Source: Candidatus Nomurabacteria bacterium (GTDB lineage: Bacteria > Patescibacteriota > Dojkabacteria > SC72 > JAHDCA01). From it: DNA of 64,000 bases. Positions 1 to 48,993 of this stretch are shown here, piece after piece. The notes below the pieces were generated by a model. It worked only from the letters and a program-made list of their open reading frames with translations. It was not told the DNA's origin and made no database searches. Location: NCBI GenBank assembly GCA_020632375.1, contig JACKFR010000004.1, forward strand, positions 1,921-65,920. The letters run 5' to 3'. The position numbers and the translations under genes were made by a program. The first letter of the stretch is position 1, and the number at the start of each line of letters is the position of its first letter.

Positions 1-77
1 CTTATTTATCAGCATGAATGAAATACTTCATTCAATCATTGAGCTGACTAAAATTTGTTTGAAATTTCTACCTGTAC

Positions 78-171
78 GAAAATGTAGTAGAAAAATGACT
101 GAATTTTATAGCTTGGAGACTATAGCGAGGACACTATATTTTAACTTTTATCTAAACTCTGAAAATGACTG
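78..171. repeat. Iteron-like direct repeats with a GAAAATG core; the 10-mer AAAATGACTG occurs at 92-101 and 162-171
   Basis: Read directly: GAAAATG at 78-84 and 161-167, GAAAAATG at 90-97. The 10-mer AAAATGACTG is repeated 70 bp apart, upstream of the RepO-like gene. Confidence 0.35.
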
Positions 172-266
172 TAAATACGATATAAAGGAGAGATTCTAAA
201 AGCTTACCAATCGTCAAAAAATTAGCATGAAATTAGAACTCAGGCGATAATAAAGATAGAAAAAAA

Positions 267-348
267 GAATCACCTGCAAACAGTGGACGGGCATCCAAAC
301 AGTAGGAGGTGATTCAATATAGATTATAACAAATAAAGCTTCCTACTG
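267..348. repeat. Two overlapping, mutually exclusive inverted repeats with an internal direct repeat; possible origin or regulatory structure of the element
   Basis: GAATCACCT (267-275) pairs with AGGTGATTC (307-315) as a perfect 9-bp inverted repeat with a 31-nt spacer. The spacer contains CAAACAGT twice (277-284, 296-303). CAGTAGGA (300-307) pairs with TCCTACTG (341-348). Confidence 0.6.
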
Positions 349-368
349 GGCTTGATTAAATATTGCTT

Positions 369-950
369 ATGCAGTCAGTAGGAGAAATATTACAAACAGA
401 ACAATTCAAAGGAAATTTAAAAGACCTTTCGAAGCCAAATTTCAAAGAAGTTTCTAAACTTCCATTTCTCAAACTCCCACTCCTCATTGAAAATCTCATC
501 TTCTTTGACACTCAGATAACTAAACGACAGATAAAAATTCTCCTGTTCATAATGCGATTCTCATTCGGTTGTAAGAAGGCTACAGCGTATCTAAAACTAA
601 CTGATTTCTACAAGATAGGATTTTACTCGGGTGACATAACAAAAGAGCTTACAAAGCTAATTGAGAAACAATATATCGGTTGGAATAAGGCCAATGAAGA
701 AATGTGGATAAACCGGAGATTGCTTAGTAAGTTACTAGCAAAAGATGAAGAATTTGCTAGTGAAATACTTCGTAGAAATCTAGTAAGTCACTTCCAAAAG
801 AAGAAGTATTCTACTAGCACCGATGATCAACTAGCTACCGATACAAAAGGCAAATCAGACCCCTATAGATATAAACAGATAAATATAGATAGTAGTAATA
901 GATATCAAAGTGACTTTGTGGATAAGTTGAAAAATGAGGTCAAGCCATGA
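369..950 (+). CDS. Phage replication protein O-like (N-terminal winged-helix) protein
   Basis: The segment FLKLPLLIENLIFFDTQITKRQIKILLFIMRFSFGCKKATAYLKLTDFYKIGFYSGDITKELTKLIEKQYI follows the pattern of the Phage_rep_O N-terminal domain (xLxxLLxIxRxTxGxxKxxxxISxxxxxxxTGxxxxxVxxALxxLxxxxxI). The ATG at 369 is preferred over the TTG at 363. The stop overlaps the next ATG (ATGA at 947-950). Confidence 0.45.
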   Translation: MQSVGEILQTEQFKGNLKDLSKPNFKEVSKLPFLKLPLLIENLIFFDTQITKRQIKILLFIMRFSFGCKKATAYLKLTDFYKIGFYSGDITKELTKLIEKQYIGWNKANEEMWINRRLLSKLLAKDEEFASEILRRNLVSHFQKKKYSTSTDDQLATDTKGKSDPYRYKQINIDSSNRYQSDFVDKLKNEVKP

Positions 951-1168
951 ACCAGCCTATTCAACTATCCGAAATCGAAATACAGGAATTCATTAAAACT
1001 CATAAAAAGGTAACTGGTGAGACTTTAGACTATGAGAAAGCAAAAAGACAGGCTACTAAGCTAATGAAACTTATGATTTTAGCGGTGTCAAAAGTACCAA
1101 AATCTGATAAAAAGAAAGTGGACACAACTAATAAATCGCAATTACGAGCCTTTCCATTTAAGGATTAG
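947..1168 (+). CDS. Hypothetical small basic protein (73 aa), translationally coupled to the RepO-like gene
   Basis: ATGA start/stop overlap with the upstream gene. Lys-rich, with no motif I recognise. Confidence 0.5.
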   Translation: MNQPIQLSEIEIQEFIKTHKKVTGETLDYEKAKRQATKLMKLMILAVSKVPKSDKKKVDTTNKSQLRAFPFKD

Positions 1169-1174
1169 ATGGAT

Positions 1175-1234
1175 AAAAGGGGGATTCGTACAATTTCGTT
1201 TTTGCGAAGTTGTGTCCAACGAGTTCCCCTTTTT
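1175..1234 (+). repeat. Nested hairpin between the 73-aa ORF and the recombinase start; terminator-like, or a recombinase or regulator binding site
   Basis: The outer arms AAAAGGGG(G)A (1175-1184) and TTCCCCTTTTT (1224-1234) enclose an inner hairpin ACAATTTCG (1190-1198) / CGAAGTTGT (1205-1213). The inner hairpin is 9 bp with one G-U pair and a 6-nt loop. A T-run follows. Confidence 0.5.
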
Positions 1235-1261
1235 GTTTATCTAAATTCATAATAAAACAAC

Positions 1262-2934
1262 ATGGAAAAACTAAACATCTCATACAATCGTAAGTCAACA
1301 GAAGATAAAGGCAGGCAAGCCCAATCAATAGAAGACCAGAGAAAATCAACAAACAAACTGCTAAACAACTTGGCTTTAAGATAGATCATGAATTCATAGA
1401 CGAAAAAACAGCACTTGAACCGTATGTCAGAGATGGTTTTCTCGAAATGACTAAACTAATCAATGAAGGCAAAGTAGATAATCTATTTTGTTGGAAACTG
1501 GATAGACTAGCTAGAAACCCAATAGAAGCAGGAATTGTTACCCATTTACTCCAAACTCGAAAAATATCTTCAATCGTTACACCAAACAAAACCTTCTATC
1601 CAGAAGACAATGCAATACTTACAGCAGTAGAATTTGGAATGGCGAATCAATACAGCCGAGATTTGAGGGGAAATGTACTCAGAGGGCTTAAAAGCAAACG
1701 AGAAAAAGGCTGGATGCCTAACTATGCCCCTAATGGCTATCTAAACGAACGATATAACGAAAAAGGACTCAATAGAATACTTGAAGATCCTAAACGTTTT
1801 AAACCTATTCAGAAGCTTTGGAAATTAGCTTTAACAGGTAACTACAGCATTGCTGATCTAGCAGATATCATAAACAACGAATACAAGGTTAAAACAAAAG
1901 GAGGAAAAGAGTTTTCAAAATCTACACTTCATCGAATGTTTAATAATCCGTTCTATTACGGCTATTTCAAAAACAAGGATACTTATGTCAAAGGAAAGCA
2001 TAAGCCAATGGTTACAAAGAAAGAATTTGATGAACTCCAATCAATATTTAATGCTCACAACGGCAGACCGCAGGATTCAAAAGCAGAAAACAAATACAAT
2101 GGACTTATTAAATGTGGTGAATGTGGCTATACAGTTATTCCAGAACCACTCAAATACAAGAAAATTAAATCTACAGGAGAAACAAAATCATACAAATATT
2201 GGCACTGTTCGCATAAGTCAAAAGCCATTGATTGTAAGCAGAAATCTATCAATGAATCCGAACTCGAAAATCAGATGAACGAGTTTCTATCTAGTCTTGA
2301 AATTGACGAAGCTTACATTGAATGGGGGATGAAATTTGTAGAGCATCATCTTGATGAAGATATAAAGGAACGAAAGAACTTACAACGCAAATACAAAAAA
2401 CTACTTACTGAAACAACTGATGAGCTTGATTCACTTGTAAAGCTAATGATTAGCAAAGGCAACAAAGATCATTCACTACTCACTGAACAGGAATTCGAAA
2501 AACAAAAACTAGATCTATCCTACAAAAGAGATGAAATAACCCAGCAACTTAAAGATTTAAACAAAAGACAAGACCACATAATCAACGAAGTTAGAACCAA
2601 CCTTGAGTTCTGTACAAACTTAATAAATAGGTTTAATGATGGGTCAATTGATGACAAAAGAGAGATACTTCTCAATTTGGGTCGAACCGTAGATCTAAGA
2701 GATAAAATACTTAGTATAAAGCCTGAAATCCCGTTTAAGTCTATGCAAAAAGTCAAAAAGTTTACAACCACCTATCCGAAGTGGGTCGAACTAAATCCGA
2801 GCCTAGATAACAATGAAAATGAAGCGTTAGCGACTGTCAGTCGATTCTGGCGGAGAGACAGGGATTCCCCGCCGCCCGTTGTGCAGCGGGACAAGCTCAC
2901 TTATCTCTTGCTTCGCAAGAAGGGTTCTCATTAG
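1262..2934 (+). pseudogene. Large serine recombinase (resolvase domain, recombinase domain, zinc ribbon and coiled coil) interrupted by a 1-nt frameshift near 1340-1347
   Basis: Frame 2 from the ATG at 1262 gives MEKLNISYNRKSTEDKGRQAQSIEDQRK..., with the catalytic Y-x-R-x-S and SIExQ motifs, and stops at 1382-1384. Frame 1 is open from 1309 and continues ...EKINKQTAKQLGFKIDHEFIDEKTALEPYVRDGFLEMTKLINEGKVDNLFCWKLDRLARN, which is the rest of the resolvase domain. Next come the recombinase domain (YAPNGYLNERY), the zinc ribbon (CGECGYTV...YWHCSH...DC) and a coiled coil. The last ~28 codons read through a tRNA-Ser 3' fragment. Confidence 0.8.
2850..2866. repeat. 17-bp perfect direct repeat of the tRNA-Ser 3' end (att-like core); the second copy is at 2983-2999
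   Basis: CGGAGAGACAGGGATTC occurs at 2850-2866 and at 2983-2999. The sequences flanking the two copies differ on both sides. Confidence 0.9.
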
Positions 2935-2953
2935 ACACAGGTATACTAAAAAC

Positions 2954-2976
2954 CCCGACATAAAGTCGGGATTTTT
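2954..2976. terminator. Bidirectional rho-independent terminator between the recombinase stop and the tRNA-Ser 3' end
   Basis: CCCGAC (2954-2959), loop ATAAA, GTCGGG (2965-2970), then ATTTTT on the + strand. An A-run precedes the stem, so the minus strand also reads as a hairpin followed by a T-run. Confidence 0.6.
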
Positions 2977-2982
2977 AGTATA

Positions 2983-3069
2983 CGGAGAGACAGGGATTCG
3001 AACCCTGGGTCCCGTTTCCGGGACGCACGCACTCCAAGCGTGTCCGTTCGACCACTCCGGCATCTCTCC
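2983..3069 (-). tRNA. tRNA-Ser (anticodon GGA), class II with a long variable arm; no encoded CCA
   Basis: The reverse complement folds by hand as follows. Acceptor stem: GGAGAGA/TCTCTCC. D arm: CCG-AGTGGTCGAA-CGG. Anticodon stem: CACGC/GCGTG. Anticodon loop: TTGGAGT. Variable arm: CCCGGAAACGGG. T arm: CAGGG-TTCGAAT-CCCTG. Discriminator: G. Confidence 0.95.
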
Positions 3070-3134
3070 ATGGCAGATATTTTAGCAGAAAAAGCTTAGC
3101 CGATTAAATTGAAACATGGCTTGAAGGAGAGAAT

Positions 3135-3253
3135 TACTCAAATAACGACAGTACAAACTCAAGTTTACTCAAGTTGATATGTCCTATAGGGGTTATTATA
3201 CGCCTAATAAGTTGATATCAGGTTTTTAATGATGAGTCCTATAGTACCCCTAT
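3135..3253 (+). promoter_or_regulatory. Promoter-like region with clustered repeats upstream of, and overlapping, the start of the orphan gene pair
   Basis: TTGATA (3174-3179), a 17-nt spacer, then TATACG (3197-3202). Tandem ACTCAAGTT at 3157-3165 and 3167-3175. AAGTTGATAT at 3171-3180 and 3209-3218. GTCCTATAG at 3181-3189 and 3236-3244. CCTATAGG (3183-3190) is a perfect palindrome. ATAGGGGT (3186-3193) is inverted to ACCCCTAT (3246-3253). Confidence 0.4.
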
Positions 3254-3798
3254 GTGAGAACCGCGTGGCCTTAATGAAAAATTGTGTACTCACTCCTTGG
3301 CTCAATGTAATACGAGTTGCTTTGCAGAATGATCTTTATTCTGCGATAACAGTAATTAATGTAGATGGGCCGCCTGGTGAAGTATTGTCTGCACTAACTT
3401 TTTGTTCCACTTTGCTCGGGAGCGATCCTCTACCTGAATCTTCACCTGGTGTAAATTTAGATATCGCAATGAGAGTTTCTTTTTCTCCAGAAATTATCCA
3501 ACAGCATCTTGCTGCGTTTGCCGAGGTCGATCAGGAAGCAGCAGATGTTTTATTGCCTAGTCTTCCTGATATCGTGGATACTTTAGGAAAGATTCGAGAC
3601 GGAGTAAACAGATCTTCATTAATCAATCCAGATCTGTTTGATTTGGCTATGCTTGAAGAAACAATTTTGTATATGGCTATAAAGCCCGAAGATATATTAG
3701 AAAGACTGGTCCTATGCAGTAACTTTGAGGATGCTTCTGATCTAATCAATGATGCGGTCGAAAAATATATTTCAAGTTTTGAAGGTCAAGTCAAATGA
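3229..3798 (+). CDS. Orphan acidic, Lys-poor cytoplasmic protein (189 aa), unknown function
   Basis: Long ORF in AT-rich DNA. No TM segment or signal peptide. Only 5 Lys in 189 aa by my count. The stop overlaps the next start (ATGA at 3795-3798). The start is uncertain: M1, M2 or M16. Confidence 0.7.
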   Translation: MMSPIVPLCENRVALMKNCVLTPWLNVIRVALQNDLYSAITVINVDGPPGEVLSALTFCSTLLGSDPLPESSPGVNLDIAMRVSFSPEIIQQHLAAFAEVDQEAADVLLPSLPDIVDTLGKIRDGVNRSSLINPDLFDLAMLEETILYMAIKPEDILERLVLCSNFEDASDLINDAVEKYISSFEGQVK

Positions 3799-4985
3799 AA
3801 ACACCTTTAAATGCTGAATATAATAATCAGTTGGCTCAACTGCACCCTGGTGAGAATATACAATTCTCTAATGGGAGTAGTATATTTACAATATCTGATT
3901 TGGGGAGTGATGCCTTTCCTCCCGAGTTAGTTAAAGCGGCTAAAGAAAACGAGCTTAGCCCACTTACTATAGAGGTTGCTGCTTGGGATCCGTCATTGAG
4001 AGGAAGATTGGAACGGTTGGGTAACATCTACTCGGAGGGGGATTCTACCTATGTTGTCATTGAGTCTGGGGTTTTAGGGGTCGTTTGGGCAGGATATCTT
4101 GAAGAAGGTAGTATAAAGCTATTACCTCGGTCGTACATGCCAGATTTGCCGGGTATTTCGGTTCCATTTGTCACGGAAGTAGAGAAAGAAGACCTAATTT
4201 TAAATTTGATGTTACTTCTTAAAAAGCTTGGTGATGGCTCTGAACTATCTAGAATTCCGGATTCATCGATTGAACTGGGTGACCCGATCTATCAAAGGCT
4301 TTTTTCTGGGGGCTCTGCATCTGGATTGGTCGGAGCACCGATATATGTAGATTTTATGACTGGCATACCTGACAGGTTGCTTTTGCAATCAGCTGATAAA
4401 AGTAGTTTAGAATATTTTGAGAAAGCATCGGAGGATTTCATTCGGGCACTTGTTTGCAATATCAGATATATCTTCAAAGTTAACCCTAATACAGCTGGTC
4501 TTTTACGTCAAGCTGTGCAGGTCTCTCGCGAATGGGATGAAGCAACTATTTCGGGGCCTCCTGCATTAATGAATATGTTTAGTAAGGAATTAACGTCTCT
4601 CAGTAATTGCATTGCTTTTGGAAGAGCAAGCTTTCGAGAGATTAATAAAGTATTACAAGTTGTCCAGACTGAGATGGCAAAGTTAGCAATTAATATATAT
4701 GATTCTGAAGATCCTGAGGGAAAGCGGTCTCAAATACGAATTCTTCGAAAAAAGTGTGCGGATCTACTATTTGATGAGTTTTTACGTATAGCTAGGCGAA
4801 AAGGAATTAATGAAAATGTAGATGGAAAAGAGATCTACTCGATCAAAAATAAGGGGATTTTCACTACTAGGCTGATTAAGTATATAGAGACAGATCCGAA
4901 ACTTGTAGAGCTTGCAATTCTCTGGACGTTTGCATCGGGAGATAGCGATTTATTAACTGACCTTAATGCGACATTACGATATTAG
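3795..4985 (+). CDS. Orphan protein (396 aa), unknown function, translationally coupled to the 189-aa ORF
   Basis: Uninterrupted 1.19-kb ORF with an ATGA overlap to the upstream gene. I recognise no TM segment, signal peptide or catalytic motif. Confidence 0.8.
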   Translation: MKTPLNAEYNNQLAQLHPGENIQFSNGSSIFTISDLGSDAFPPELVKAAKENELSPLTIEVAAWDPSLRGRLERLGNIYSEGDSTYVVIESGVLGVVWAGYLEEGSIKLLPRSYMPDLPGISVPFVTEVEKEDLILNLMLLLKKLGDGSELSRIPDSSIELGDPIYQRLFSGGSASGLVGAPIYVDFMTGIPDRLLLQSADKSSLEYFEKASEDFIRALVCNIRYIFKVNPNTAGLLRQAVQVSREWDEATISGPPALMNMFSKELTSLSNCIAFGRASFREINKVLQVVQTEMAKLAINIYDSEDPEGKRSQIRILRKKCADLLFDEFLRIARRKGINENVDGKEIYSIKNKGIFTTRLIKYIETDPKLVELAILWTFASGDSDLLTDLNATLRY

Positions 4986-5014
4986 CCGCCCTCCAGGACG
5001 TTTCAAGCCGAAAT

Positions 5015-7051
5015 CTAGTTCGTTGGCTCAACTACTTGTGGTTCAACCTCTTTCACTGTTATCAAGATTCTCCCTTGTCTATTTGGGAAGTACCTGAGAC
5101 TTTTCGGGAAATAGTCAGGTAAGAACTCTACTTCGGTATTTTGCGCAACAAAAGATAGGTCTCCGAGGTACTTGATTCCGTCATCCCAGTTTTTTCCACT
5201 CAAATCTTTTGCGATAAGCTCTTTGTCAACAGTAGGTTTTACTGCACCGGAAGCAGTAATGGTTACTTTTACAGTAGATCCTTTTACGCTTTTTACTTTT
5301 ACTGAAGTCACAATATCTTTATCAAGCTTGAGATCAAGATCTTTACTGCTTTCAAATAGATTCTCATCTTGAGCTGCTTTCAGAAGCAATTCATCAGCGT
5401 TATCTAAAAGGTCTTTTTTATTGTAATAAAGTGCTGTTGAGCTTGTCTTTGCGGTTACGTTGACAATGTCTACTTCTGCACCTGAAGGAAAGTCTGAGCT
5501 GATTGTGGGGTTGTCGCCAGCCTTGATTGTTGATTCAATTATTTCCCACTCGTCATTGCTCAACTCTTTTAGCTTGTTTTCTGCATCTTTTGCTGCAGCT
5601 TCTTTAATCTTTTCTGCGAGGTTGTTTATATCTGACTGAGTTATTACTGTAAAAGTCTCTTTTGAGCCTCCGGAGAAAGAAGCAGAGTCGTTTACTGCGT
5701 TGATTTCATCGATAGTATAGCCAGCAACACTGAATGCGGTGCCTGATGCGAGATTGTATTCTTCACCAACATCTGCGGCTTCGACTGTTGCTTCAGTTGT
5801 TGTAGGGCATTCTAGGCTTACATCTGACACTATTGTATAGGAGAGATTGTCTTCGCTCGCGATCGCTGTACCAGCAGCTATCTGAGTTGCGCCATCTAAA
5901 AAACACTTTACCGTTACAATCCCACCCGCCTTTGTTCCACGTGAACCTACTCCAGTCGCAGCAGCGCTATCAGATGTTTCATCTGAAATTGTTTCCTTCT
6001 TTACGCGGAGTTTAGAGCCTTCAAGACTAAACTCTGTTGTACTTGGATCACCTGTAAAGACTTCTTTTGCTGCAACAGGTCTGCTTTCGATAAATATATT
6101 TACCTTAACTAACGGTGCATATGTATATACTGCCCAGAGAGAAGCAGCTGTTATAACTAAAAGTGGAAGCACAAACAGTAATAAGATTTTTTTACCGTTC
6201 ATCTTTTTGAATATATTCAGACTCATTTTGATCTTCGGTTTATCTGGAGATTTTCTATCAGTTGGAATAGGGCTGAAGTGCTTGGTTTTCATTGCATTCT
6301 GTTCGGTTGTGTGAGGGTTGGAAGTAAAGACTTCTCTTGGGGCTTCTGGCTTGAAGTTTTTACCGACCAAGCTTTCGTTTGAAGAGGAGTCGTGAGTCGA
6401 AGTCTTAGCCATCATACCTTTATCTTCTGTCTGGTTTGGGGGCACTTCTGAATCTTCTTCAATATCGTGGTCAAGAGCTATGAGCATACCGTCTTGTTCG
6501 ATAGTTTTTGATTTTATGTGTTGTAGTTCACTTTTAGATTTTGCTAATACGTCTTCAATTTTCTTTTGGAATGCTGAGATAGGTTTATCCGGTTCTTTGT
6601 TTTCGTTTTTATCATTAGGTTGATTACCTTCTTCAGAGGGTGATTCTGTTGCTGGAGTTTGCGGGATAATAACCGAACCAGCTTTCTGATTTACACCTTT
6701 CAAGACTCTTTCACGGTCACGACGTCGGGCATCTAATGAACTCTCTATATCCTGCCACATTTGTTCGGTAATATTTCCAAGAGATTCTAGTATTGTAACA
6801 GAGGCTTTTTCAGCATTTCGAATACCTGCAGGATTTTGGATAATTTGAAAAACCAGGGCTTTATTTTCTTCATCGGCAGTTTCTTGCAAGACCTTGAAGT
6901 TAACAGGACTGATTAGAAGATCGCTTTCTTCTGCAAATACAACAATTAGTCTATTTTCTTTAGAATTTTTGATCTCACGAACAATATCGATGAGTTCTTG
7001 GTTTTGTTGAACGACTATTTTTTTGTAGCTGTTATTCTTTCCGTCAGGCAT
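5015..7051 (-). CDS. Bitopic membrane protein: small cytoplasmic N-domain, long polar linker, one TM segment and a large beta-rich extracytoplasmic domain
   Basis: TM segment ILLLFVLPLLVITAASLWAVYTY. The extracytoplasmic part (…ATGVGSRGTKAGGIVTVKCFLDGATQIAAGTAIAS…) resembles proteins often annotated as baseplate-J-like in CPR genomes; this comes from memory and is unverified. Located immediately downstream of the FtsA/PilM-like gene. Confidence 0.5.
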   Translation of the reverse strand: MPDGKNNSYKKIVVQQNQELIDIVREIKNSKENRLIVVFAEESDLLISPVNFKVLQETADEENKALVFQIIQNPAGIRNAEKASVTILESLGNITEQMWQDIESSLDARRRDRERVLKGVNQKAGSVIIPQTPATESPSEEGNQPNDKNENKEPDKPISAFQKKIEDVLAKSKSELQHIKSKTIEQDGMLIALDHDIEEDSEVPPNQTEDKGMMAKTSTHDSSSNESLVGKNFKPEAPREVFTSNPHTTEQNAMKTKHFSPIPTDRKSPDKPKIKMSLNIFKKMNGKKILLLFVLPLLVITAASLWAVYTYAPLVKVNIFIESRPVAAKEVFTGDPSTTEFSLEGSKLRVKKETISDETSDSAAATGVGSRGTKAGGIVTVKCFLDGATQIAAGTAIASEDNLSYTIVSDVSLECPTTTEATVEAADVGEEYNLASGTAFSVAGYTIDEINAVNDSASFSGGSKETFTVITQSDINNLAEKIKEAAAKDAENKLKELSNDEWEIIESTIKAGDNPTISSDFPSGAEVDIVNVTAKTSSTALYYNKKDLLDNADELLLKAAQDENLFESSKDLDLKLDKDIVTSVKVKSVKGSTVKVTITASGAVKPTVDKELIAKDLSGKNWDDGIKYLGDLSFVAQNTEVEFLPDYFPKSLRYFPNRQGRILITVKEVEPQVVEPTN

Positions 7052-7056
7052 TGTTT

Positions 7057-8328
7057 CTAGCTTCCTTTATAGTAGTTTTCCGGGTTTGTAAATTTATCAT
7101 ACGCAAACCTAGCAATTGCTACCGGAGTTACATCATAAGGATGCGCAAGGTCTCCTGTATGATCCGTTACTCCACTTAATCTGTCTGGCAGGAATATGTT
7201 TACTTTAGGGATCTTTGCAAATGGTAACAACTTTGTCCACGGATATTCCAGCATAACATTTTTAATATCTGGAAGCATAGCACCACCTCCGCATAGATAG
7301 ATTTGAGGGGGAAAAACGTCAACATCTTCAATTTCACCTAGTGCTGCAGCAAAAGTTTTCATCCACAGCTCGGTAGTAGGGTATACGATCTGCTTTACTT
7401 CACTGTGTACTTTCGATTCAAGGTCGTTGTTGCTGTACTTTCTTTTGCGTGATTCAGCGTGCCTGTAGTCCAAATTCATCCCTTTTGCGATTTCTTTAGT
7501 AAAAGCCCGTCCTCCAAATGCAAACATCTGTGTGTCTAAAACATTTCCATGGTCTACAACCGCAATATCAGTCGTTCCACCTCCTATGTCTACAAAAATC
7601 GCTGAGAAATCAGACCTTCTGGCATCACCATAGGCTCTTGCGACTGCAAACGGCTGTGCCACCACACCAATCATTTGCAACTTTAGTGCATCGGCGATCT
7701 TCTTGAGAGATTCAACATAAGTCTTAGGTGCAAAAGAAGCGTAAAAGTACAGTTTGACACTTTTACCTCTAAAGCCGACAAGTGTGTTTACATTCATCCC
7801 TCCAATCTCCATTCCAGTTACTGTGATGTGTAAGATCTCTATGTCTTCGTGGACAAGCCCGGTTCTTGCGGCCAAGTCATTTTTTCCTTCGTTAATGATC
7901 TGTTCATGGACTTTGCTAATAATCTTTTCTTCTTCTTCTTTTGTAACTTCGTTGTCAAACTTCGCTTCTCGTTCATAGTTCACGATAATTGAGACGCCTT
8001 GGATATATTCTCCTGCAATTCCCATAACGACATGAGTTGGCATTTCATTTGGTTCTAATCCCGAAGTAATTTCTGAAATCGCCAAGTCACAGTTTTCTAA
8101 AACCGTGTTGAGATTTTGTATTTGGCCTTTGCTCATAGCGCTTTGTTGCTGTTGAATTCTCGCTACTTTGTGGATATTAATACCATGGGGATTTGCGTTG
8201 AAAAGAACAACTTTAAGAATCTCTGTCCCGATGTCTATCGACAGCATATTGCTGTTAGGGGGGGGCTGAACGTCACTACTTGTGCTCTTTGAAAAAGGCA
8301 GTTTAAACATGAAAATAGTATACCACAA
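7057..8328 (-). CDS. Actin-fold ATPase of the FtsA/PilM family
   Basis: Motifs LSIDIGTEILKVV, MGIAGEYIQG, FVDIGGGTTDIAV, FGGRAFTKEIA and LCGGGAMLPDI. The 27-aa N-terminal extension contains a C8 (PPP) tract. An alternative start at MLSIDIG lies at about 8247. Confidence 0.75.
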   Translation of the reverse strand: MWYTIFMFKLPFSKSTSSDVQPPPNSNMLSIDIGTEILKVVLFNANPHGINIHKVARIQQQQSAMSKGQIQNLNTVLENCDLAISEITSGLEPNEMPTHVVMGIAGEYIQGVSIIVNYEREAKFDNEVTKEEEEKIISKVHEQIINEGKNDLAARTGLVHEDIEILHITVTGMEIGGMNVNTLVGFRGKSVKLYFYASFAPKTYVESLKKIADALKLQMIGVVAQPFAVARAYGDARRSDFSAIFVDIGGGTTDIAVVDHGNVLDTQMFAFGGRAFTKEIAKGMNLDYRHAESRKRKYSNNDLESKVHSEVKQIVYPTTELWMKTFAAALGEIEDVDVFPPQIYLCGGGAMLPDIKNVMLEYPWTKLLPFAKIPKVNIFLPDRLSGVTDHTGDLAHPYDVTPVAIARFAYDKFTNPENYYKGS

Positions 8329-8351
8329 GGAAGCCCTCTGCTAGAACAGAA

Positions 8352-9923
8352 TCAACTTCGCCCTCCTCCTTTTTCAGTTGCGTAGTACTCACCACGGAAT
8401 TTGTTAAGAAGCATCTCTGTCTGAGCTTGGATTTTAGGTATAAATCCAAAAGTAAGCATGTTTACTGTGATGAGTTGAATTTCGACAATATCTAAAAGTT
8501 TTCTTAAAAAATTCCAGTTTTTGGGCATCTTTATTAATTTCGTCTTAACAATATAAACAGGAATATTTAGAGTCATAAGTGCACCAAGCACATAACTCAT
8601 TGCTTTTGTGAGATTGTAGGACGCTGAGCTATATTGGAATCCGTTGCTAATCAAGTGCATTATGGGGACAGAAAACGTGATTGTATAGACTGCTGTTGTA
8701 AAAGCGATTTGGTTGTGGACGAGCCTTCTGACTAGATCAGCTTTTTTAAACGGTTTAATCTTTTTATTTTTGTAAAATCCTGCAAATGTCATCGGAAAAA
8801 CAATTACACCCCAGCCCCAGCGAAGTTGCTGTTTATATAGAGCTTGGTGGCTTTTCCAGTAGCTTTCATTTTCAACTGCGTCGTTATAAGTTGGAATATA
8901 GACCTCTTCTCCAACAAAATCTCCATCAAATTTTAAGACAGCTTCCCAATAAAAAGTAGTATCGTCTATTCCGACATCTGGATGCCAGAATCCAACATCC
9001 TTTACCGTCTTCAAGCTGACGACATAGGCCGACCATGTATCGCGCATGTTCCGTTCAACAACCCATGAATGCATTATTGCCAATGTCAACGAATTTGCAA
9101 AAACGCGATTTAGAACCGGGACAGCCCAGATATTATTTTTAAATGTATGGACTGCTGAAGCAAAAAATTTCTTATAATTATCTTCTGTTGTTAGATACTT
9201 ATAAGTAATTGATGAGAGATACTTTGGATGCGGTCTTAAATCACAGTCATTAGTTATTAAAAGGTAATCGTCAGGTTTTTCACCTCTCTCTTCAATTTTT
9301 TTGACAAATCTGCGGGTAGCCCAATTTATGTTTGCACCTTTTACGCCTTTTATTTCACCGGGGATACCAGCTGGATGCACATCGTAATACATTTCTCTAA
9401 ATTTGTTTTTATATTTCTTTATAAGTTTTTCACATGTGGGGATACTCATGTCTGTAAATCTTTCTTCGAGTGCGAAAACAATTGAAATTTTATCTGCTCC
9501 TATATCTTGCTCGGAAAAAAGCTTAATTGCAGGATCTAGTGTCTCTAGTCCCTCTTTCACCATCGGGCAAATGTAGACATATTTCATCTCTTTTGCATCT
9601 AACATTTTGACTTTCTTGACCCAGTCTATAGACAAGTCTCGCTTCATTCGCTTGTAACCCACGACTATTCCGTATGCAAATTTAAAACCTCTATAGCTCC
9701 AATAAGCTGTTATCAAAGCGACATAAACAACGAGAAGCTCAAACTGGTTTGTTAGCGATAGGATTACGGGAAGAAGAATCAAAACCCAGGTGATAGCACC
9801 AGGAACTTTTTCAAATATTTTTGTATACCATTCTGGAACCCAAACAGGATAGCCTCTTTTTTTATCTGGATGACGGTAGTCGTTATAGTTGAAGTCTCTA
9901 TCTACCTTGTATTTTTGGGGCAT
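8352..9923 (-). CDS. Polytopic family-2 glycosyltransferase of the processive (cellulose/chitin-synthase-like) type
   Basis: DxD-like motif LLITNDCDLRP, the segment GIDDTTFYWEA, and a Q-x-x-R-W motif (KQQLRWGWG). TM segments flank the catalytic domain on both the N- and C-terminal sides. Confidence 0.8.
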   Translation of the reverse strand: MPQKYKVDRDFNYNDYRHPDKKRGYPVWVPEWYTKIFEKVPGAITWVLILLPVILSLTNQFELLVVYVALITAYWSYRGFKFAYGIVVGYKRMKRDLSIDWVKKVKMLDAKEMKYVYICPMVKEGLETLDPAIKLFSEQDIGADKISIVFALEERFTDMSIPTCEKLIKKYKNKFREMYYDVHPAGIPGEIKGVKGANINWATRRFVKKIEERGEKPDDYLLITNDCDLRPHPKYLSSITYKYLTTEDNYKKFFASAVHTFKNNIWAVPVLNRVFANSLTLAIMHSWVVERNMRDTWSAYVVSLKTVKDVGFWHPDVGIDDTTFYWEAVLKFDGDFVGEEVYIPTYNDAVENESYWKSHQALYKQQLRWGWGVIVFPMTFAGFYKNKKIKPFKKADLVRRLVHNQIAFTTAVYTITFSVPIMHLISNGFQYSSASYNLTKAMSYVLGALMTLNIPVYIVKTKLIKMPKNWNFLRKLLDIVEIQLITVNMLTFGFIPKIQAQTEMLLNKFRGEYYATEKGGGRS

Positions 9924-9926
9924 TTT

Positions 9927-11669
9927 CTAAACAAAAACAGGTAAAATCATTGGCTCTCGCTCAGTTTTTTTGTAAATATACTTTGAAAGCCTTGTTTCGA
10001 GAAGTTTTCGGAGTTCCTTTCGGTCTGGATTTGCTTTTCTGGATGACAGCCATTCTCGGTGAGTGTCTTTGACAATGTTATCGAGCTCTTTGAAAAGCTT
10101 TTGAGAGTTTTTCACATACACAAAACCTCTTGATAAGAAATTGAGATTTCCAATAATCTGATTTGTCTTGTTGTTTAAATTCATTATAACTGCAACCATA
10201 CCGTATTCTGCAAGTTGTGTTCGATCTTTTAGGACAATGTCTCCAATATCTCCTACACCTAGTCCATCAATCATTACTGGCTTGGACTCAATCTGCTTAC
10301 CTCTTTTCCAGTCTCTTCCTTCGTAGATCCACATTTGGCCATCATCTGTGAGCAAGACTTTATCTTCAGGAGTGCCCCAGCTGACATAGTTCTTTTTATT
10401 GTAATAACGCATTGTCAGGCTGCCGTGAATTGGCATTACATATCTCGGTTCTGTCAGTTTATACATTATTCTCATGTCTTCTTTTAGACCGTGGCCGCTT
10501 TCATGAACCTGCATGAATGAGTTTTGAACCAGCTCTGCGCCTCTTTTAATTAGCCGGTCTGTCATTTCTCCGATTTTTGTTACATTCCCAGGAATTTCTG
10601 ACGCAGATAAGATAACCAGGTCACCTTGTTTTACTTTGAAATGGGCGTGTTCGCCTAGTGAAACACGATTTAATGCAGAATATCTTTCTGCCTGGCTGCC
10701 GGTGCAGATAAACATAATCTGATTATCTTGAAATTTGGACATATTCTTTTCGGGCTGGATGAGATCTCTTGGAACTGAGATATAATGTTGTTCTTGAGCT
10801 ATTGCTATTGAATTTCTAAGACTTCTTCCCGAAATAAAGACTTTTCGGTTTAATTTCTCTGCAATTTTTATAACTGAATAGAGACGAGAAATAATACTTG
10901 AAAACGCAGCGACAACTATTCTTCCATCATGCTTCGCTATAATATCTTCAAGATTATGTGCAATTTCAGCACCTGATTTTGCTTTCCCTTCACTTTTTGA
11001 ATTGGTGCTTTCCATGAGAGCAAGGTCTACTTTGCCCCTGAGCTGTTTTAGAGCCTCATAATCTGTTTCTGCTTCATTCGCAGGATCAGTATCAATCTTG
11101 TAATCACCGGAGAAAAAAACATTTCCGCTTGGTGATTGGACAAAGATAGAGAATGCGTTTGGAATCGAGTGGGTGACACCAATAAATGAAACTTTAAACC
11201 GACCAATACTCATTTGTGTGTTGCGATCAATGTCATGTAGCTTAACTTTGTTAAGCATTCCAGCTTCTTTAAGCTTGCTTGCTATTAATGCATTTGCGAA
11301 TTTTCCTCCATAGATTGGTGGGTAGTCTAGTTCTGGCAATATATATTCAAGTCCTCCTGTATGGTCGAGATGACCGTGGGTTATTAAGATCGCTTTGACG
11401 CGTTTTTTGTTTCTTTTCAGATAGGCGATATTAGGGATTAGATAGTCAATTCCTAAAAGTTCCTGGCCTGGAAACGAAAATCCGCAATCGATTATTAAAA
11501 TATCTTTACCGAATTCGATGAAATTGCAGTTACGGCCGACTTCTTCAGTTCCTGAAAGAGTACATACCTTAAGCTGCTGTTTTGTATTTCGGGAAAAACG
11601 GTTCGGGCGAGATTTCCTGCTGCGAAAGCGACTGTCAGGTTGCTTAGTGCCTTTATTTTCTTCTGTCAT
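9927..11669 (-). CDS. rnj: Ribonuclease J (metallo-beta-lactamase / beta-CASP)
   Basis: ILITHGHLDHTGG (HxHxDH motif) and the N-terminal segment LSGTEEVGRNCNFIEFGKDILIIDCGFSFPG…GIDYLIPN. The length (~580 aa) and overall layout are typical of RNase J. Confidence 0.9.
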   Translation of the reverse strand: MTEENKGTKQPDSRFRSRKSRPNRFSRNTKQQLKVCTLSGTEEVGRNCNFIEFGKDILIIDCGFSFPGQELLGIDYLIPNIAYLKRNKKRVKAILITHGHLDHTGGLEYILPELDYPPIYGGKFANALIASKLKEAGMLNKVKLHDIDRNTQMSIGRFKVSFIGVTHSIPNAFSIFVQSPSGNVFFSGDYKIDTDPANEAETDYEALKQLRGKVDLALMESTNSKSEGKAKSGAEIAHNLEDIIAKHDGRIVVAAFSSIISRLYSVIKIAEKLNRKVFISGRSLRNSIAIAQEQHYISVPRDLIQPEKNMSKFQDNQIMFICTGSQAERYSALNRVSLGEHAHFKVKQGDLVILSASEIPGNVTKIGEMTDRLIKRGAELVQNSFMQVHESGHGLKEDMRIMYKLTEPRYVMPIHGSLTMRYYNKKNYVSWGTPEDKVLLTDDGQMWIYEGRDWKRGKQIESKPVMIDGLGVGDIGDIVLKDRTQLAEYGMVAVIMNLNNKTNQIIGNLNFLSRGFVYVKNSQKLFKELDNIVKDTHREWLSSRKANPDRKELRKLLETRLSKYIYKKTEREPMILPVFV

Positions 11670-11707: not shown

Positions 11708-12208
11708 CTACTGTTCAGTGTTTTCTTCACAAATATACAACCTGCTATATGCTTGCCGCTCGGAACTTGAAGTAGGGGTGTATCCGGATTCTGTTAAGAT
11801 ATGTATTGCATCCGAAAAAGCGTCGGCATTTAGATCTACGTTTCCAAGATGGATTGTATGAAAGAGAACATTGATGTGGCGTTTTTTTACGATGGCTTGT
11901 AGGATATTGGTTACCAAAGTAACCCTTCTTTCCAATTCTTTTCCTGGATGATCACCAAGATTGTCAGTTAAAGCGTGTTCTTCATGCTCTTCTTTCTGCC
12001 ATTTTATAGAACAATACTGATCCGGGCTTTCTCCATGGATGCGGATAGTAACAGCTTCTGCCGCCTGAAGTCCTTCTGAACCAGGGGTTGATGCAACGAA
12101 TGCAGGTAAACCCTTTTGTTCAGTCTCTTGTATTACGAATCTCGTAGAGTCTTCTCTGTGTTCAGGACTATTAACTTCTAAGCTAAAAACAGAATAGATA
12201 TTACCCAT
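11708..12208 (-). CDS. Hypothetical acidic, His-rich protein (166 aa)
   Basis: ORF located between rnj and the valS leader. I recognise no motif: I looked for 2H-phosphoesterase HxTx pairs and PTPS motifs and did not find them. Confidence 0.5.
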   Translation of the reverse strand: MGNIYSVFSLEVNSPEHREDSTRFVIQETEQKGLPAFVASTPGSEGLQAAEAVTIRIHGESPDQYCSIKWQKEEHEEHALTDNLGDHPGKELERRVTLVTNILQAIVKKRHINVLFHTIHLGNVDLNADAFSDAIHILTESGYTPTSSSERQAYSRLYICEENTEQ

Positions 12209-12613: not shown

Positions 12614-14968
12614 ATGAAAATGTCAGAAAAACAAGATAAAACAAAACAGATGGAGAGTGCTTTTGATGCCTCGACAGAAGAGTCTTTATATAAGCTTTGG
12701 GAAGAGTCGGGCTTTTTTACCCCCGAAAATGTTGAAAAATATTTGAAAGAAAATGGAAATGAAATTAAAAAGCCTTTTACGATAACCCTACCGCCTCCAA
12801 ATGCAAACGGGCAGCTTCATTTGGGGCATACTTGTGGGTATTCATTTCAGGACGCAATGGGTCGATTTAACCGAATGATGGGTCATCCTACACTTCTACT
12901 TCCTGGAAAAGACCATGCGAGCATCCAAACTGAAGCTGTTTTTTCAAGAATCCTTGAAGAACAGGGTGAAAACAAATGGGATCTCGGCAGAGATGAGTTT
13001 TATAAGCGTTGTTACGAATTTTGTATGAGTGCTGCGAAAAATGCTCAAGAGCAAGAGAAACGTATTGGGCTTTCAGCTGACTGGAGCCGTGATTTTTTCA
13101 CACTTGACCCAAGGCTTAATGAAATTATTAATGAAACTTTTTTTGAAATGTTTAAAGATGGGCTAATATACCGTGGTAAATATATAATTAACCAGTGCCC
13201 TCACTGTAGAACTGCTCTTGCAGATATCGATACTGAGCGAAAGGAAATGCCAGGGATTTTTGCGTATATAGTTTATCCATTTACTGATGAAAAAGATAAT
13301 GATCTTGCCGAAAAGAAGCTTGGTCAAAGAGGGATTATGATCGCAACAACCCGCCCTGAGACAATGCTTGCAGACACTGCTGTTGCCGTTAATCCAGATG
13401 ACGATAGATACAAAGAATTTGTTGGGAAAAAAGTAATGCTCCCTGTTGCTAATCGCGAAATCCCAATAATCGCAGATGAAGCGGTTGACATTGAAAATGG
13501 TACTGGAGCTTTGAAAGTTACACCAGCTCACTCACCAATTGACTTTGATATCGGACTTACTCACAATCTAGATGTCATCAATGTTATTGATGAAAACGGT
13601 CATATGACAGGTGAAATCCCTGAACGATTTAAAGGAATGGAAACAATTGAATGCTCAAAAGCTTTGGTCAAAGAATTGGAAGAAATGGGGCTTCTCAATA
13701 AGATTGAAAGAATAAAGCATGAAGTTACCGTTTGTGAAAGATGCCAGACACCGATTGAGCCAATTGTTTCATATCAGTGGTTTGTTGATGTAAAACCGCT
13801 TGCAGAAAAAGCACTTGAAGCTATCCGAACTGGGAAAACAATTGTTATCCCTGACGGTCAGCAGTCAGCGTTAATTCATTTCTTCGAGAATATTAAGCCT
13901 TGGTGTATTTCGAGACAGCTGTGGTGGGGACAAAGGATTCCTGTCTGGTACAGTGGAGGAAAGAAATTGTACGATTGGCTACAAGATAACCCAGAGTCAA
14001 CAATTGAAGATTGGGAAGAAGAAACAGGTGATAAAGCTAAAGGATCGGGTAAAATTATTGCCTCGCTTGATAAACCAGAAAATGACCCTGAATGGAAAGG
14101 AAGTTCTATGGATCTTTGGCTAGAAGAAGAATCTGATATCTTTGATACTTGGTTCAGCTCCGGTCAGTGGCCATTTTCTACGCTTGGTGGGCGGGAAGGT
14201 GAAGACTTTAAGAAGTATTATCCAACTCAAGTCATGGAAACAGCCCGAGACATCCTCTTTTGGTGGGTTGCTAGAATGATGATGCTCGGAATTTATAAGA
14301 CAGGTGAGACACCCTTTGCAAGAGTCTTTCTGCATGGTCTTATTCTTGCCGCAGATGGTTCCAAGATGTCAAAGTCTAGAAATAACGGTGTAGCACCAGC
14401 TGAAGTTTTTAAAAAGTATGGCGCAGATGCACTGAGACTTTGGTATTTTACAGATTCTTTGCCAGGATCGAATACTCTTCTTCAAGAAGAAAAGATCAAA
14501 GGTAATAGATTTTTCATTAACAAAATCTGGAATGCGAGCCGGTTTATACTTTTGAATCTTGAGGAGAGTGAAATTCCTGCCCTCAGAAGCAGGTTAGAAG
14601 CAATTGATAATGGTTGGAAAAATGGTGATCTTAGTGCGAGTGAAATTTTAATGAAAACTAAAGAGCACACAGAGAAGATTATTGAGTATATGGATCAGCT
14701 CAGGTTTCATTTGGCAGCAGAGTCAATAAGAGAATTTTTCTGGAAATATTTCTGTGATATCTGCATCGAGGACACAAAAAACGAAATAAAGGGTAAAGAA
14801 ATTGGTAGCGATGAGAGAATTGAGTCTCTTGCAATTCTTCTTTACGTACTCAAGCAAAACTTAAAGATCATGCATCCTTTGATTCCGTATATCACAGAAG
14901 CAGTCTGGCAAGAATTAACTAAAGCTGGCCTTGCAGAAGGATTCATAATGGTTCAGCAAATCGGTTAG
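12614..14968 (+). CDS. valS: Valyl-tRNA synthetase (short form without the C-terminal coiled coil)
   Basis: PPPNANGQLHLGH (HIGH region, ValRS-type PPPN), KMSKSRNN (KMSKS motif), an editing domain with TRPETMLADTAVAVNP, and a Val-type T-box leader upstream. Confidence 0.9.
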   Translation: MKMSEKQDKTKQMESAFDASTEESLYKLWEESGFFTPENVEKYLKENGNEIKKPFTITLPPPNANGQLHLGHTCGYSFQDAMGRFNRMMGHPTLLLPGKDHASIQTEAVFSRILEEQGENKWDLGRDEFYKRCYEFCMSAAKNAQEQEKRIGLSADWSRDFFTLDPRLNEIINETFFEMFKDGLIYRGKYIINQCPHCRTALADIDTERKEMPGIFAYIVYPFTDEKDNDLAEKKLGQRGIMIATTRPETMLADTAVAVNPDDDRYKEFVGKKVMLPVANREIPIIADEAVDIENGTGALKVTPAHSPIDFDIGLTHNLDVINVIDENGHMTGEIPERFKGMETIECSKALVKELEEMGLLNKIERIKHEVTVCERCQTPIEPIVSYQWFVDVKPLAEKALEAIRTGKTIVIPDGQQSALIHFFENIKPWCISRQLWWGQRIPVWYSGGKKLYDWLQDNPESTIEDWEEETGDKAKGSGKIIASLDKPENDPEWKGSSMDLWLEEESDIFDTWFSSGQWPFSTLGGREGEDFKKYYPTQVMETARDILFWWVARMMMLGIYKTGETPFARVFLHGLILAADGSKMSKSRNNGVAPAEVFKKYGADALRLWYFTDSLPGSNTLLQEEKIKGNRFFINKIWNASRFILLNLEESEIPALRSRLEAIDNGWKNGDLSASEILMKTKEHTEKIIEYMDQLRFHLAAESIREFFWKYFCDICIEDTKNEIKGKEIGSDERIESLAILLYVLKQNLKIMHPLIPYITEAVWQELTKAGLAEGFIMVQQIG

Positions 14969-48991: not shown

Positions 48992-48993
48992 TT

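Follow-up and report, generated by a model that had tools for sequence, protein, structure and literature searches.

Between a tRNA-Ser gene and a conserved block of cell-envelope and division genes, a Dojkabacteria genome carries two overlapping open reading frames, A and B, which an earlier note put forward as a candidate for an undescribed accessory system. This raises the question of whether the two frames are genes, how they came to lie beside the tRNA, and what their products might do. We analysed them within a stretch of 64,000 nucleotides of this genome (the window) and in comparison with related genomes. The features discussed below are listed in Table 1.

Table 1. Positions of the features at the tRNA-Ser locus in the window
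Feature	Position	Strand	Basis or remark
Strain-specific low-GC element	1..2847	+	Genes for a Phage_rep_O-like protein, a 73-aa protein and a large serine recombinase; Pfam; GC 0.32–0.37
Displaced tRNA 3′ end	2848..2867	-	AATCCCTGTCTCTCCG + CCA; att-type scar
115-nt filler between tRNA and displaced 3′ end	2868..2982	.	In both strains
tRNA-Ser(GGA)	2982..3070	-	Intact, no encoded CCA; ARAGORN; Rfam tRNA, 51.3 bits
Divergent intergenic region	3071..3228	.	Identical in both strains; function putative
1,944-nt segment missing from genus-level relatives	3071..5014	.	Lineage-specific insertion
Orphan gene A	3229..3798	+	ORF, 189 aa from ATG 3229
ATGA start/stop overlap of A and B	3795..3798	+	Read directly from the sequence
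Orphan gene B	3795..4985	+	ORF, 396 aa
Gene for a 678-aa Baseplate_J-like protein	5015..7051	-	Pfam; last gene of an RNase J-GT-FtsA/PilM-like block

Coding evidence for genes A and B

The extent and strand of both frames, and the four nucleotides that they share, were as the earlier note had described them. The ATGA overlap suggests that translation of A and B is coupled. Start/stop overlaps of 4 nt are frequent in this genome, for example at 947, 54565 and 55140. Gene A has an alternative start at ATG 3274 (M16) that would yield a protein of 174 aa; this start is NCBI's choice in both carrier genomes, and the first 60 codons counted from 3229 had a negative coding score.

A run of 189 codons without a stop should arise by chance ∼0.33 times per window, compared with 2.5e-7 times for one of 396 codons, and therefore length by itself proves gene B only. 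The in-frame codon log-odds was +0.16 for gene A (+0.22 when counted from 3274) and +0.19 for gene B, where it was even along the whole gene, while the host genes had a mean of 0.284 (sd 0.081, minimum 0.152). For both genes the remaining five frames were negative, so that a frame-specific codon bias resembling that of host genes was found in the annotated frame alone. Both genes also follow the order GC1>GC2>GC3 seen in host genes, and their overall composition is host-like (GC 0.40, GC3 0.29–0.33). The case for gene A thus rests on the coupling and on the codon score of its frame, not on the length of its ORF. On this evidence A and B look like genuine genes.

Insertion of the pair between a conserved gene and tRNA-Ser

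In order to place the pair, we examined the junction between the Baseplate_J-like gene and the tRNA in the 11 genus-level relatives whose contig shows it, out of 17 Dojkabacteria relatives. All 11 have a tRNA gene 41–316 nt past the stop codon of the Baseplate_J-like orthologue. This is tRNA-Ser itself in seven of them (L001, L004–L007, L012 and L017; 41–55 nt in five), and tRNA-Arg, at 42–53 nt, followed by tRNA-Ser in the other four (L008–L010 and L015). In the window, by contrast, the segment that holds the pair separates the stop of the Baseplate_J-like gene from the tRNA-Ser 5′ end. Since the spacer between gene and tRNA is short in these relatives, the 1,944-nt segment is an insertion in the present lineage. 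In neighbour-joining (NJ) trees L001 is the sister of the window, which falls within the clade of these relatives.

The Baseplate_J-like gene has orthologues in all relatives (29–38% identity) and converges on gene B across a gap of 29 nt, in keeping with the convergence of the pair on a conserved block that had been proposed. For the pair itself, the syntenic orthologues expected of a conserved housekeeping gene were not found. Its proposed accessory character is borne out by its absence from the syntenic site in every genus-level relative that shows the junction and by its presence in L019, another strain of this species; occurrence at this tRNA-Ser locus is therefore variable, with L019 the only other carrier.

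L019 is a second Dojkabacteria MAG, assembly GCA_020429345.1, and has the same pair at the same place; across 7,360 nt its DNA is 99.74% identical to the window. The two assemblies have different accessions, are 18 substitutions apart and differ in their left flanks. Neither strain has a break in either frame or in the ATGA junction; the L019 copy of gene A carries one change, P153L, and that of gene B three amino acid changes. The pair is restricted to one species-level lineage of Dojkabacteria.

We found no terminal inverted repeat (TIR) or target-site duplication (TSD) above chance flanking the 1.9-kb insertion, and a repeat search of the region listed no border repeats. An 8-nt inverted match at the borders, spotted by eye, is about what chance would give according to a rough calculation by hand. 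No transposase family was matched in Pfam at the insertion, which has no recombinase of its own, and our searches gave neither a source for the inserted DNA nor a mechanism of insertion. A scan of positions 2700–5200 against Rfam returned the tRNA only.

The element on the 3′ side of the tRNA

The position of the tRNA given by ARAGORN agrees with the placement of the pair on its 5′ side, from which the pair is transcribed divergently. Some relatives' tRNA-Ser genes, in comparison, encode CCA. On the 3′ side, a 17-nt exact repeat of att type (2851–2867 and 2983–2999) joins the tRNA to its displaced 3′ end. The filler between them, probably left behind by an earlier integration, holds a 19-bp hairpin (2941–2983) with a T run after it; no exact match to this hairpin was found in viral contigs. 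Homology with L019 stops at window position 2844, at the displaced 3′ end, and beyond that point L019 has TspO, DUF2177, DUF1295 and NAD-binding genes in place of the recombinase element. The tRNA-Ser locus is thus remodelled on both sides.

The earlier note had tied the pair to this integrative module. We found otherwise. Cargo of such an element would lie 3′ of the tRNA, between att repeats and together with a recombinase; the pair instead lies 5′ of the tRNA and outside the att-type repeat. The element has a GC content of 0.34–0.36 and 12.7–19% Lys, compared with 0.40 and 2.6–5.6% for the pair. The element is also wholly missing from L019, which keeps the pair, so that neither co-inheritance nor a shared composition connects the two. 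This result shows that the pair is not the element's cargo.

The intergenic region

A dedicated promoter with palindromic sites had been proposed upstream of gene A. The letters are there: on the plus strand, TTGATA (3174–3179) and TATACG (3197–3202) are separated by a 17-nt spacer, and the palindrome CCTATAGG occupies 3183–3190. As a dedicated promoter, however, the match is no better than chance. TATACG is without the invariant final T of a −10 hexamer, and a scan of the region found 5 promoter-like sites compared with 5.4 expected by chance, TTGATA-N17-TATACG being unlisted. Two short repeats each occur twice, AAGTTGATAT at 3171 and 3209 and GTCCTATAG at 3181 and 3236. The minus strand has a perfect TATAAT (3199–3194), and a TAAAAT box lies 9–14 nt before the tRNA. 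A TATAAT-near-ATG signature is present at 18 of 41 genes here and is not found at the pair, for which we saw no recognizable promoter box or Shine–Dalgarno (SD) sequence.

Searches for homologues

Neither protein matched a family in Pfam (E ≤ 1) or NCBIfam, and no family in PADLOC-DB 2.0 reached E ≤ 1 for either; PHROGs gave a noise match alone (E 0.069). The HMM searches that the earlier note had recommended against Pfam, PDB and PADLOC models thus yielded no significant match, and its statement that no known domain is recognizable was confirmed for Pfam, NCBIfam and PADLOC. In a word-indexed search of 5.8e9 clusters the product of gene B matched itself only, as it did in an exhaustive phmmer (HMMER) search of 1.84e9 (1.84 billion) cluster representatives. 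Protein A had no relatives at the depth of the word-indexed search of the 5.8e9 clusters, and may yet have remote homologues. Against the PDB, phmmer found no match for A and a single one for B, the CdiA-CT toxin 4zqu_A (B residues 204–298, E = 0.07, 15 bits, ∼20% identity), which is not significant. No recognizable toxin, antitoxin or immunity domain and no solved homologue was found for A or B in Pfam, NCBIfam or the PDB.

We also searched collections of mobile and environmental DNA. Neither gene had relatives in phage and plasmid collections (tblastn), in the IMG/VR viral collection or in JGI metagenome contigs, and a search of metagenome contigs for closer relatives by way of a neighbouring gene returned none. 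The relatives' loci (18 loci fetched, 17 Dojkabacteria relatives) gave nothing by blastp, tblastn or phmmer --max. Four weak tblastn matches of A fell on the opposite strand of the conserved RNase J gene and are hence spurious. The window contains no paralogues of A or B; it does contain another orphan gene a few kb off, at 11708–12208. Literature searches on Dojkabacteria turned up nothing on either gene.

A resemblance of A to the clamp-loader subunit delta′/HolB (PF13177) was also pursued and rejected. An hhalign comparison with a 14-sequence delta′ alignment gave a probability of 0.2% and left the motif regions unaligned. BLASTP against E. coli HolB was empty, Pfam gave no DNA_pol3_delta2 or AAA match, and no clamp-loader chain was found in the PDB at E ≤ 10.

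Properties of the proteins

Protein A has a pI of 4.1, 26 Leu and 5 Lys (2.6%), its Lys share being the lowest among 46 ORFs of the window; these measurements support its earlier description as acidic and poor in Lys. Protein B has a pI of 4.9 and 3 Cys, and each protein has one His. The highest Kyte–Doolittle means over 19 residues, 1.16 for A and 1.28 for B, uphold the absence of a transmembrane (TM) segment from both. We found no NTP-binding, nuclease, HEPN, metal-binding or membrane motif in either. A PD-(D/E)xK nuclease motif considered at B residues ∼115–130 fails a strict regular expression, the sequence there being EVEK, not ExK. The faint echo between A and B that had been claimed was not recovered, since the best local BLASTP alignment had an E-value of 2.7 and lay at a different place.

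Single-sequence AlphaFold2 models had a pLDDT of 36.9 for A and 39.5 for B, and Foldseek searches of both low-pLDDT models against the PDB found nothing at E ≤ 0.001. Both models are too poor to support a complex or a binding role.

Substitutions between the two strains

Between the window and L019 the pair has 4 nonsynonymous changes and 1 synonymous change, a pN/pS of 1.18 on 5 substitutions. The neighbouring genes, in contrast, have 2 nonsynonymous and 10 synonymous changes (pN/pS 0.055). Pair and neighbours differ in a Fisher test (p = 0.028), and under the neighbours' omega 4 or more nonsynonymous changes among 5 would have a probability of 0.0026. Compared with neutrality, the pair gave a two-sided binomial p of 1.0 (n = 5 substitutions). 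Its divergence, 5/1,757 nt (0.28%), is lower than the synonymous divergence of the neighbours (pS 0.009), and the ratio of pN in the pair to pS in the neighbours is 0.33. Constraint on the pair is weak, or selection is diversifying; five substitutions are too few to tell neutral drift and diversifying selection apart. The pair thus comes near to what the earlier note said would count against it, a lack of homologues with dN/dS near 1, in that none was found outside the species and pN/pS is 1.18, on five changes.

Origin and possible function of the pair

We consider it probable that A and B form a genuine, ordinary orphan operon restricted to one species. A 1.9-kb piece of DNA with two co-oriented genes entered the short spacer between the cell-envelope/division block and tRNA-Ser(GGA), after the species' lineage split from its nearest sampled relative and independently of the serine-recombinase element across the tRNA. 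Transcription of A and B would run rightward from the tRNA-proximal intergenic region, and the ATGA overlap would couple their translation, so that products of 189/174 aa and 396 aa may be made together. These are predicted to be soluble, acidic cytoplasmic proteins, which most likely act as a complex. A role in binding, inhibition or scaffolding appears likelier than an enzymatic one, because no NTP-binding, nuclease, metal-binding or membrane motif was found and each protein has one His. The host-like codon usage and the two long intact frames argue for long-term maintenance by selection, a reading drawn from composition and from intactness in two nearly identical genomes. A constraint much weaker than that of the neighbours would fit an accessory function that is dispensable and evolves fast, for instance in inter-genome conflict or host interaction, or a first stage of decay.

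If decay is the whole explanation, the pair is leftover cargo of an old insertion, under no selection and intact for want of time. We regard this as a real possibility, though clearly less probable than a functional operon. A pN/pS indistinguishable from neutral, the lack of homologues anywhere searched, the missing promoter box and SD and codon scores at the bottom of the host range all agree with it. Set against them are the host-like composition by codon position, which points to a donor of similar composition or to a long stay in the genome, and the fact that over a long residence a neutral frame of 396 codons, at a stop-codon frequency of 6.6%, would close. Both frames and the junction are uninterrupted in two strains, and the pair has diverged less than its neighbours' synonymous sites. 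We are more doubtful that the pair is a two-protein conflict module with new folds (anti-phage defence, toxin/immunity or anti-defence) under diversifying selection, and equally doubtful of a variant of it, in which an acidic protein for inhibition or immunity is paired with an effector or sensor and the module acts against phages or in a putative episymbiont–host interaction. The coupled genes, the lineage-specific insertion, the synteny breakpoint beside a tRNA and the nonsynonymous excess relative to the neighbours would suit such a module, as would the very acidic protein A, which in this is like some inhibitor or immunity proteins, and the noise-level CdiA-CT match of B. But that match is not significant, PADLOC, Pfam, NCBIfam and PHROGs gave no family for either protein, and each protein has a single His and lacks any motif of a nuclease, NTPase, HEPN domain or TM segment. 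Positive evidence for the defence or toxin/immunity role that the earlier note had suggested, or for any other system, was not found. Nucleic-acid-targeting toxins are usually basic, unlike both of these acidic proteins, and defence systems normally spread horizontally, whereas the pair was found in no genome outside the species and in no phage or plasmid searched.

The other explanations fare worse. That the pair is cargo of the serine-recombinase/RepO element, in one island spanning the tRNA, would explain their proximity (∼380 nt across the tRNA), but is very unlikely given the position of the pair outside the repeat and its different GC and Lys content, and is refuted by L019. Still less credible is an artefact, be it a chimeric assembly or ORFs open by chance. 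The sequence does come from a MAG, and a frame of the length of gene A is possible by chance; one as long as gene B is not, the frame-specific codon signal favours coding, and the same arrangement recurs in two assemblies that differ in sequence and left flank. We give least credence to extremely diverged housekeeping genes, such as clamp-loader delta′/delta-like subunits. In protein A, PWL...GPPGEV...LL and EAADVLLPSLPD look, by eye, like HolB motifs, but hhalign, BLASTP, Pfam and the PDB gave no support, the pair is missing at the syntenic site in relatives, and B has no homologue among the representatives searched.

Comparison with known systems

If functional, the species-restricted operon would add two new protein families in a phylum about which little is known, and it would exemplify the gain of lineage-specific genes by tiny symbiotic bacteria. 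Genomes of the Candidate Phyla Radiation commonly carry orphan genes like these, and the pair opens no long-standing question. It is a clean case, in that insertion point, polarity and independence from the neighbouring mobile element can all be demonstrated for an orphan operon, and relaxed constraint can be measured from two strains.

With DNA polymerase III delta′ (HolB) the pair shares superficial motif look-alikes, in A only, and it differs in profile probability, synteny and conservation. Integrases that target tRNA genes place their islands, elements with a tyrosine or serine recombinase, 3′ of the tRNA. The other side of this tRNA-Ser bears the scar of such islands, a 17-nt duplicated 3′ end with CCA and strain-specific DNA beyond, whereas the pair lies outside the scar, and L019 shows that the two are inherited separately. 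Two-gene toxin–antitoxin, toxin–immunity and defence modules resemble the pair in having a small acidic protein coupled upstream of a larger one and in being accessory and fast-evolving; the pair differs in that no PADLOC, Pfam or NCBIfam model and no catalytic motif was found, both proteins are acidic and no horizontal spread to the other genomes, phages or plasmids searched was seen. From lineage-specific ORFan genes and small islets at synteny breakpoints beside tRNA genes it is set apart by its location 5′ of the tRNA, by having no integrase, att site, TIR or TSD of its own and by its host-like composition. With these same islets it shares restriction to one lineage, a position at the end of a conserved block, the lack of homologues and a pN/pS elevated relative to core genes.

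Coding status of the orphan pair

Two overlapping ORFs of 189 aa (A) and 396 aa (B), reported in the earlier note, were read in the sequence as described. Since the adjacent tRNA-Ser lies on the minus strand, the pair is upstream of the 5′ end of the tRNA and divergent from it. The composition also agreed with the note: A contains 5 Lys (2.6%, the lowest among 46 ORFs) with a pI of 4.1, and no hydrophobic segment was found in A or in B (pI 4.9). NCBI places the start of A at M16 (3274), giving 174 aa.

Features of the orphan pair and its borders (window coordinates)
Feature	Position	Strand	Remark
A	3229-3798	+	189 aa ORF
B	3795-4985	+	396 aa ORF
ATGA overlap of A stop and B start	3795-3798	+	read in sequence
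tRNA-Ser(GGA)	2982-3070	-	tRNA call
BpJ678, 678-aa Baseplate_J-like gene	5015-7051	-	converges on B, gap 29 nt
Displaced tRNA-Ser 3′ end	2848-2867		17-nt exact copy, then CCA; 115 nt beyond tRNA

The chance expectation per window is 2.5e-7 for an open frame of 396 codons and 0.33 for one of 189 codons, so that length by itself establishes B only. With a codon model based on 34 genes of the window that have Pfam support, all six frames were scored for each ORF. Only the annotated frame was positive in both A and B. A scored +0.16 bits/codon (+0.22 from 3274; −0.12 for the initial 60 codons) and B +0.19, evenly along its whole length, with a leave-one-out mean of 0.284 for host genes (sd 0.081, minimum 0.152). 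GC at the three codon positions (A 0.54/0.36/0.29, B 0.49/0.38/0.33) matched the host pattern. These results establish A and B as real coding frames with host-like usage, toward the bottom of the host range.

A dedicated promoter had been proposed upstream of A. TTGATA-N17-TATACG and CCTATAGG are both present, but the −10 hexamer lacks the invariant final T, and a scan gave 5 promoter-like sites versus 5.4 in shuffled sequence. Shine-Dalgarno sequences are rare in the window (3/41 genes versus 10.7% background), while a TATAAT-like box lies ≤24 nt from the start codon of 18/41 genes (10% background; e.g. 11669, 23618, 25395, 57317 and 58930). This pattern suggests that mRNAs in the organism are mostly leaderless or short-leader. 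No TATAAT-like box was found near either candidate start of A (3229, 3274). The short intergenic repeats AAGTTGATAT and GTCCTATAG, each present twice, might conjecturally be operator-like.

Homology and structure searches

Family searches, suggested in the earlier note, returned nothing for either protein in Pfam (E≤1), NCBIfam, PADLOC or PHROGs. In the PDB (phmmer, E≤10), the one match paired residues 204-298 of B with a chain of a CdiA-CT toxin (15 bits, E=0.07, roughly 20% identity) and was taken as noise. Translated searches (tblastn) of phages (50,697 records) and plasmids (72,556 records) found nothing, and neither IMG/VR nor JGI metagenome contigs contained a match. A word-indexed search of 5.8 billion clusters returned nothing but the query for A and for B, and B, compared exhaustively by phmmer with 1.84 billion representatives, again matched only itself. 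The suggested AlphaFold monomers, built from single sequences, were unusable (pLDDT 39.5 and 36.9), and Foldseek matched them to nothing. A ‘faint echo’ claimed between A and B was not recovered by BLASTP of the pair.

An eye-level motif likeness of A to the clamp-loader delta′ subunit (HolB) was rejected: HolB homologues were retrieved and 14 aligned, and hhalign gave a probability of 0.2% with the motif regions unaligned; BLASTP also found nothing. A suspected PD-(D/E)xK motif in B did not match the strict pattern.

Related loci and polarity of the insertion

Seventeen related loci were retrieved via the FtsA/PilM-like neighbour from GTDB species representatives of Dojkabacteria/WS6 (FtsA identity 41-67%); an 18th, from a Heimdallarchaeota MAG, was a weak match. 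The block of RNase J, glycosyltransferase, FtsA-like and BpJ678 genes is conserved among them, and no homologue of A or B was found in the fetched loci. In seven loci (L001, L004-L007, L012 and L017), tRNA-Ser(GGA) is encoded on the BpJ678 strand, 41-316 nt past the BpJ678 stop; in five of them the distance is 41-55 nt. In L008-L010 and L015, a tRNA-Arg lies 42-53 nt after the stop, with tRNA-Ser immediately behind. In NJ trees built from FtsA and from BpJ678, the window genome branches within this clade as the sister of L001. Given this position and the tRNA gene close behind BpJ678 in relatives, 3071-5014 (1,944 nt) is, by parsimony, an insertion in the window's lineage. Terminal inverted repeats or a target duplication were not found above chance at its borders, nor was a donor found.

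The tRNA-Arg(TCT) of the subclade L008-L010 and L015 (about 13135-13345) marks a further alteration of this junction. The BpJ678 product, whose gene lies directly behind that of the FtsA/PilM-like protein throughout the Dojkabacteria relatives (L001-L017, 23-38% identity), is a conserved and so far uncharacterised partner of this actin-like ATPase. The source genome bears the NCBI label Candidatus Nomurabacteria, but its nearest relatives and near-identical sister MAG are Dojkabacteria (WS6), and several related loci are labelled ‘uncultured Candidatus Saccharibacteria’; both labels are probably taxonomic mislabels.

Second strain and the 3′ side of the tRNA

The 90% clusters of A and B each hold one further member, from another MAG (KC622_02050/02055, GCA_020429345.1). 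Its contig, L019, differs from window 2844-10203 by 18 substitutions and 1 indel (99.74% identity). The pair has the same position in this second strain, and no match to it was found in the loci of the genus-level relatives.

Seven relatives encode the CCA end of tRNA-Ser; the window's tRNA ends in CTCTCCG followed by T, without CCA. A strong 19-bp hairpin terminator separates the tRNA's own 3′ end from the displaced copy, and the duplicated region (window 2848-2999, L019 3509-3659) is the typical scar left when an element integrates at the 3′ end of a tRNA. This scar is common to both strains. Strain homology stops exactly at the displaced CCA end, so that strain-specific islands are joined to it. 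To its left the window carries an element of low GC that encodes a Phage_rep_O-like protein and a large serine recombinase, and L019 carries TspO, DUF2177, DUF1295 and NAD-binding genes instead; neither set was found in genus-level relatives, whose DNA after tRNA-Ser holds varied accessory genes without integrases. The tRNA is therefore a synteny breakpoint.

The recombinase is frameshifted, with its catalytic N-terminus (MEKLNISYNRKSTEDK... / MEKLNISYNRKSTEDKGRQAQSIEDQ...) in another frame at about 1262-1390 (region 1262-1447), and the 495-aa ORF (1447-2934) matches Resolvase profile positions 56-143 only; the gene is a pseudogene unless the shift stems from a homopolymer sequencing error. 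In L019, the NAD_binding_10 gene (2187-2819), called as 210 aa, lacks a start codon where it was called to begin and splits into ATG-initiated ORFs of 43 aa and 129 aa; a frameshift or a wrongly called start may be the cause.

Selection and interpretation

Between the window and L019, the pair shows 4 nonsynonymous and 1 synonymous changes (pN/pS 1.18), versus 2 and 10 in four neighbouring genes (pN/pS 0.055; Fisher's exact p=0.028). The changes are P153L in A, a two-base codon change scored 1 N + 1 S, and A181P, I183M and D389N in B. Under the neighbours' omega, the probability of ≥4/5 nonsynonymous changes is 0.0026; with five changes only, the pair's pN/pS is not distinguishable from neutrality. 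The pN of the pair over the pS of the neighbours is 0.33, synonymous divergence being very uneven from neighbour to neighbour. Constraint on the pair, as judged from these five changes, is thus much weaker than on core genes, through drift or diversifying selection. Host-like codon usage and two long intact frames argue that selection acted over the longer term. A decaying relic, the likeliest of the rival readings, is considered unlikely.

That the pair is cargo of the recombinase element, as the earlier note had linked them, is effectively refuted and very improbable: L019 carries the pair without the element, and the two differ in GC (0.40 versus 0.34-0.36) and Lys content (2.6-5.6% versus 12.7-19%). 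The pair is thus inherited independently of the element. An artefact is more improbable still, since the same pair at the same place in L019 makes it real in two separately deposited assemblies. The least credible reading, diverged housekeeping genes, is refuted. A novel conflict system is improbable, and for the label ‘undescribed accessory system’ we found no positive evidence.

We favor, with moderate confidence, a genuine species-restricted orphan operon. It would have arrived by insertion between BpJ678 and tRNA-Ser and would encode two soluble acidic proteins, produced together and probably acting as a non-enzymatic complex. The operon would be dispensable and under weak constraint.

Two other adjacent ORFs that lack Pfam matches (398 aa and 221 aa; 47795-49659, +) follow MurJ and have no similarity to A or B. 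Another orphan besides A and B, ORF 11708-12208 (−; 166 aa, acidic, 3.6% Lys), lies between RNase J and LeuRS, where the gap in relatives varies in length; it has no Pfam match, and tblastn found no counterpart in any relative. Orphans are not rare here, and the pair is a real and well delimited, yet ordinary, finding.
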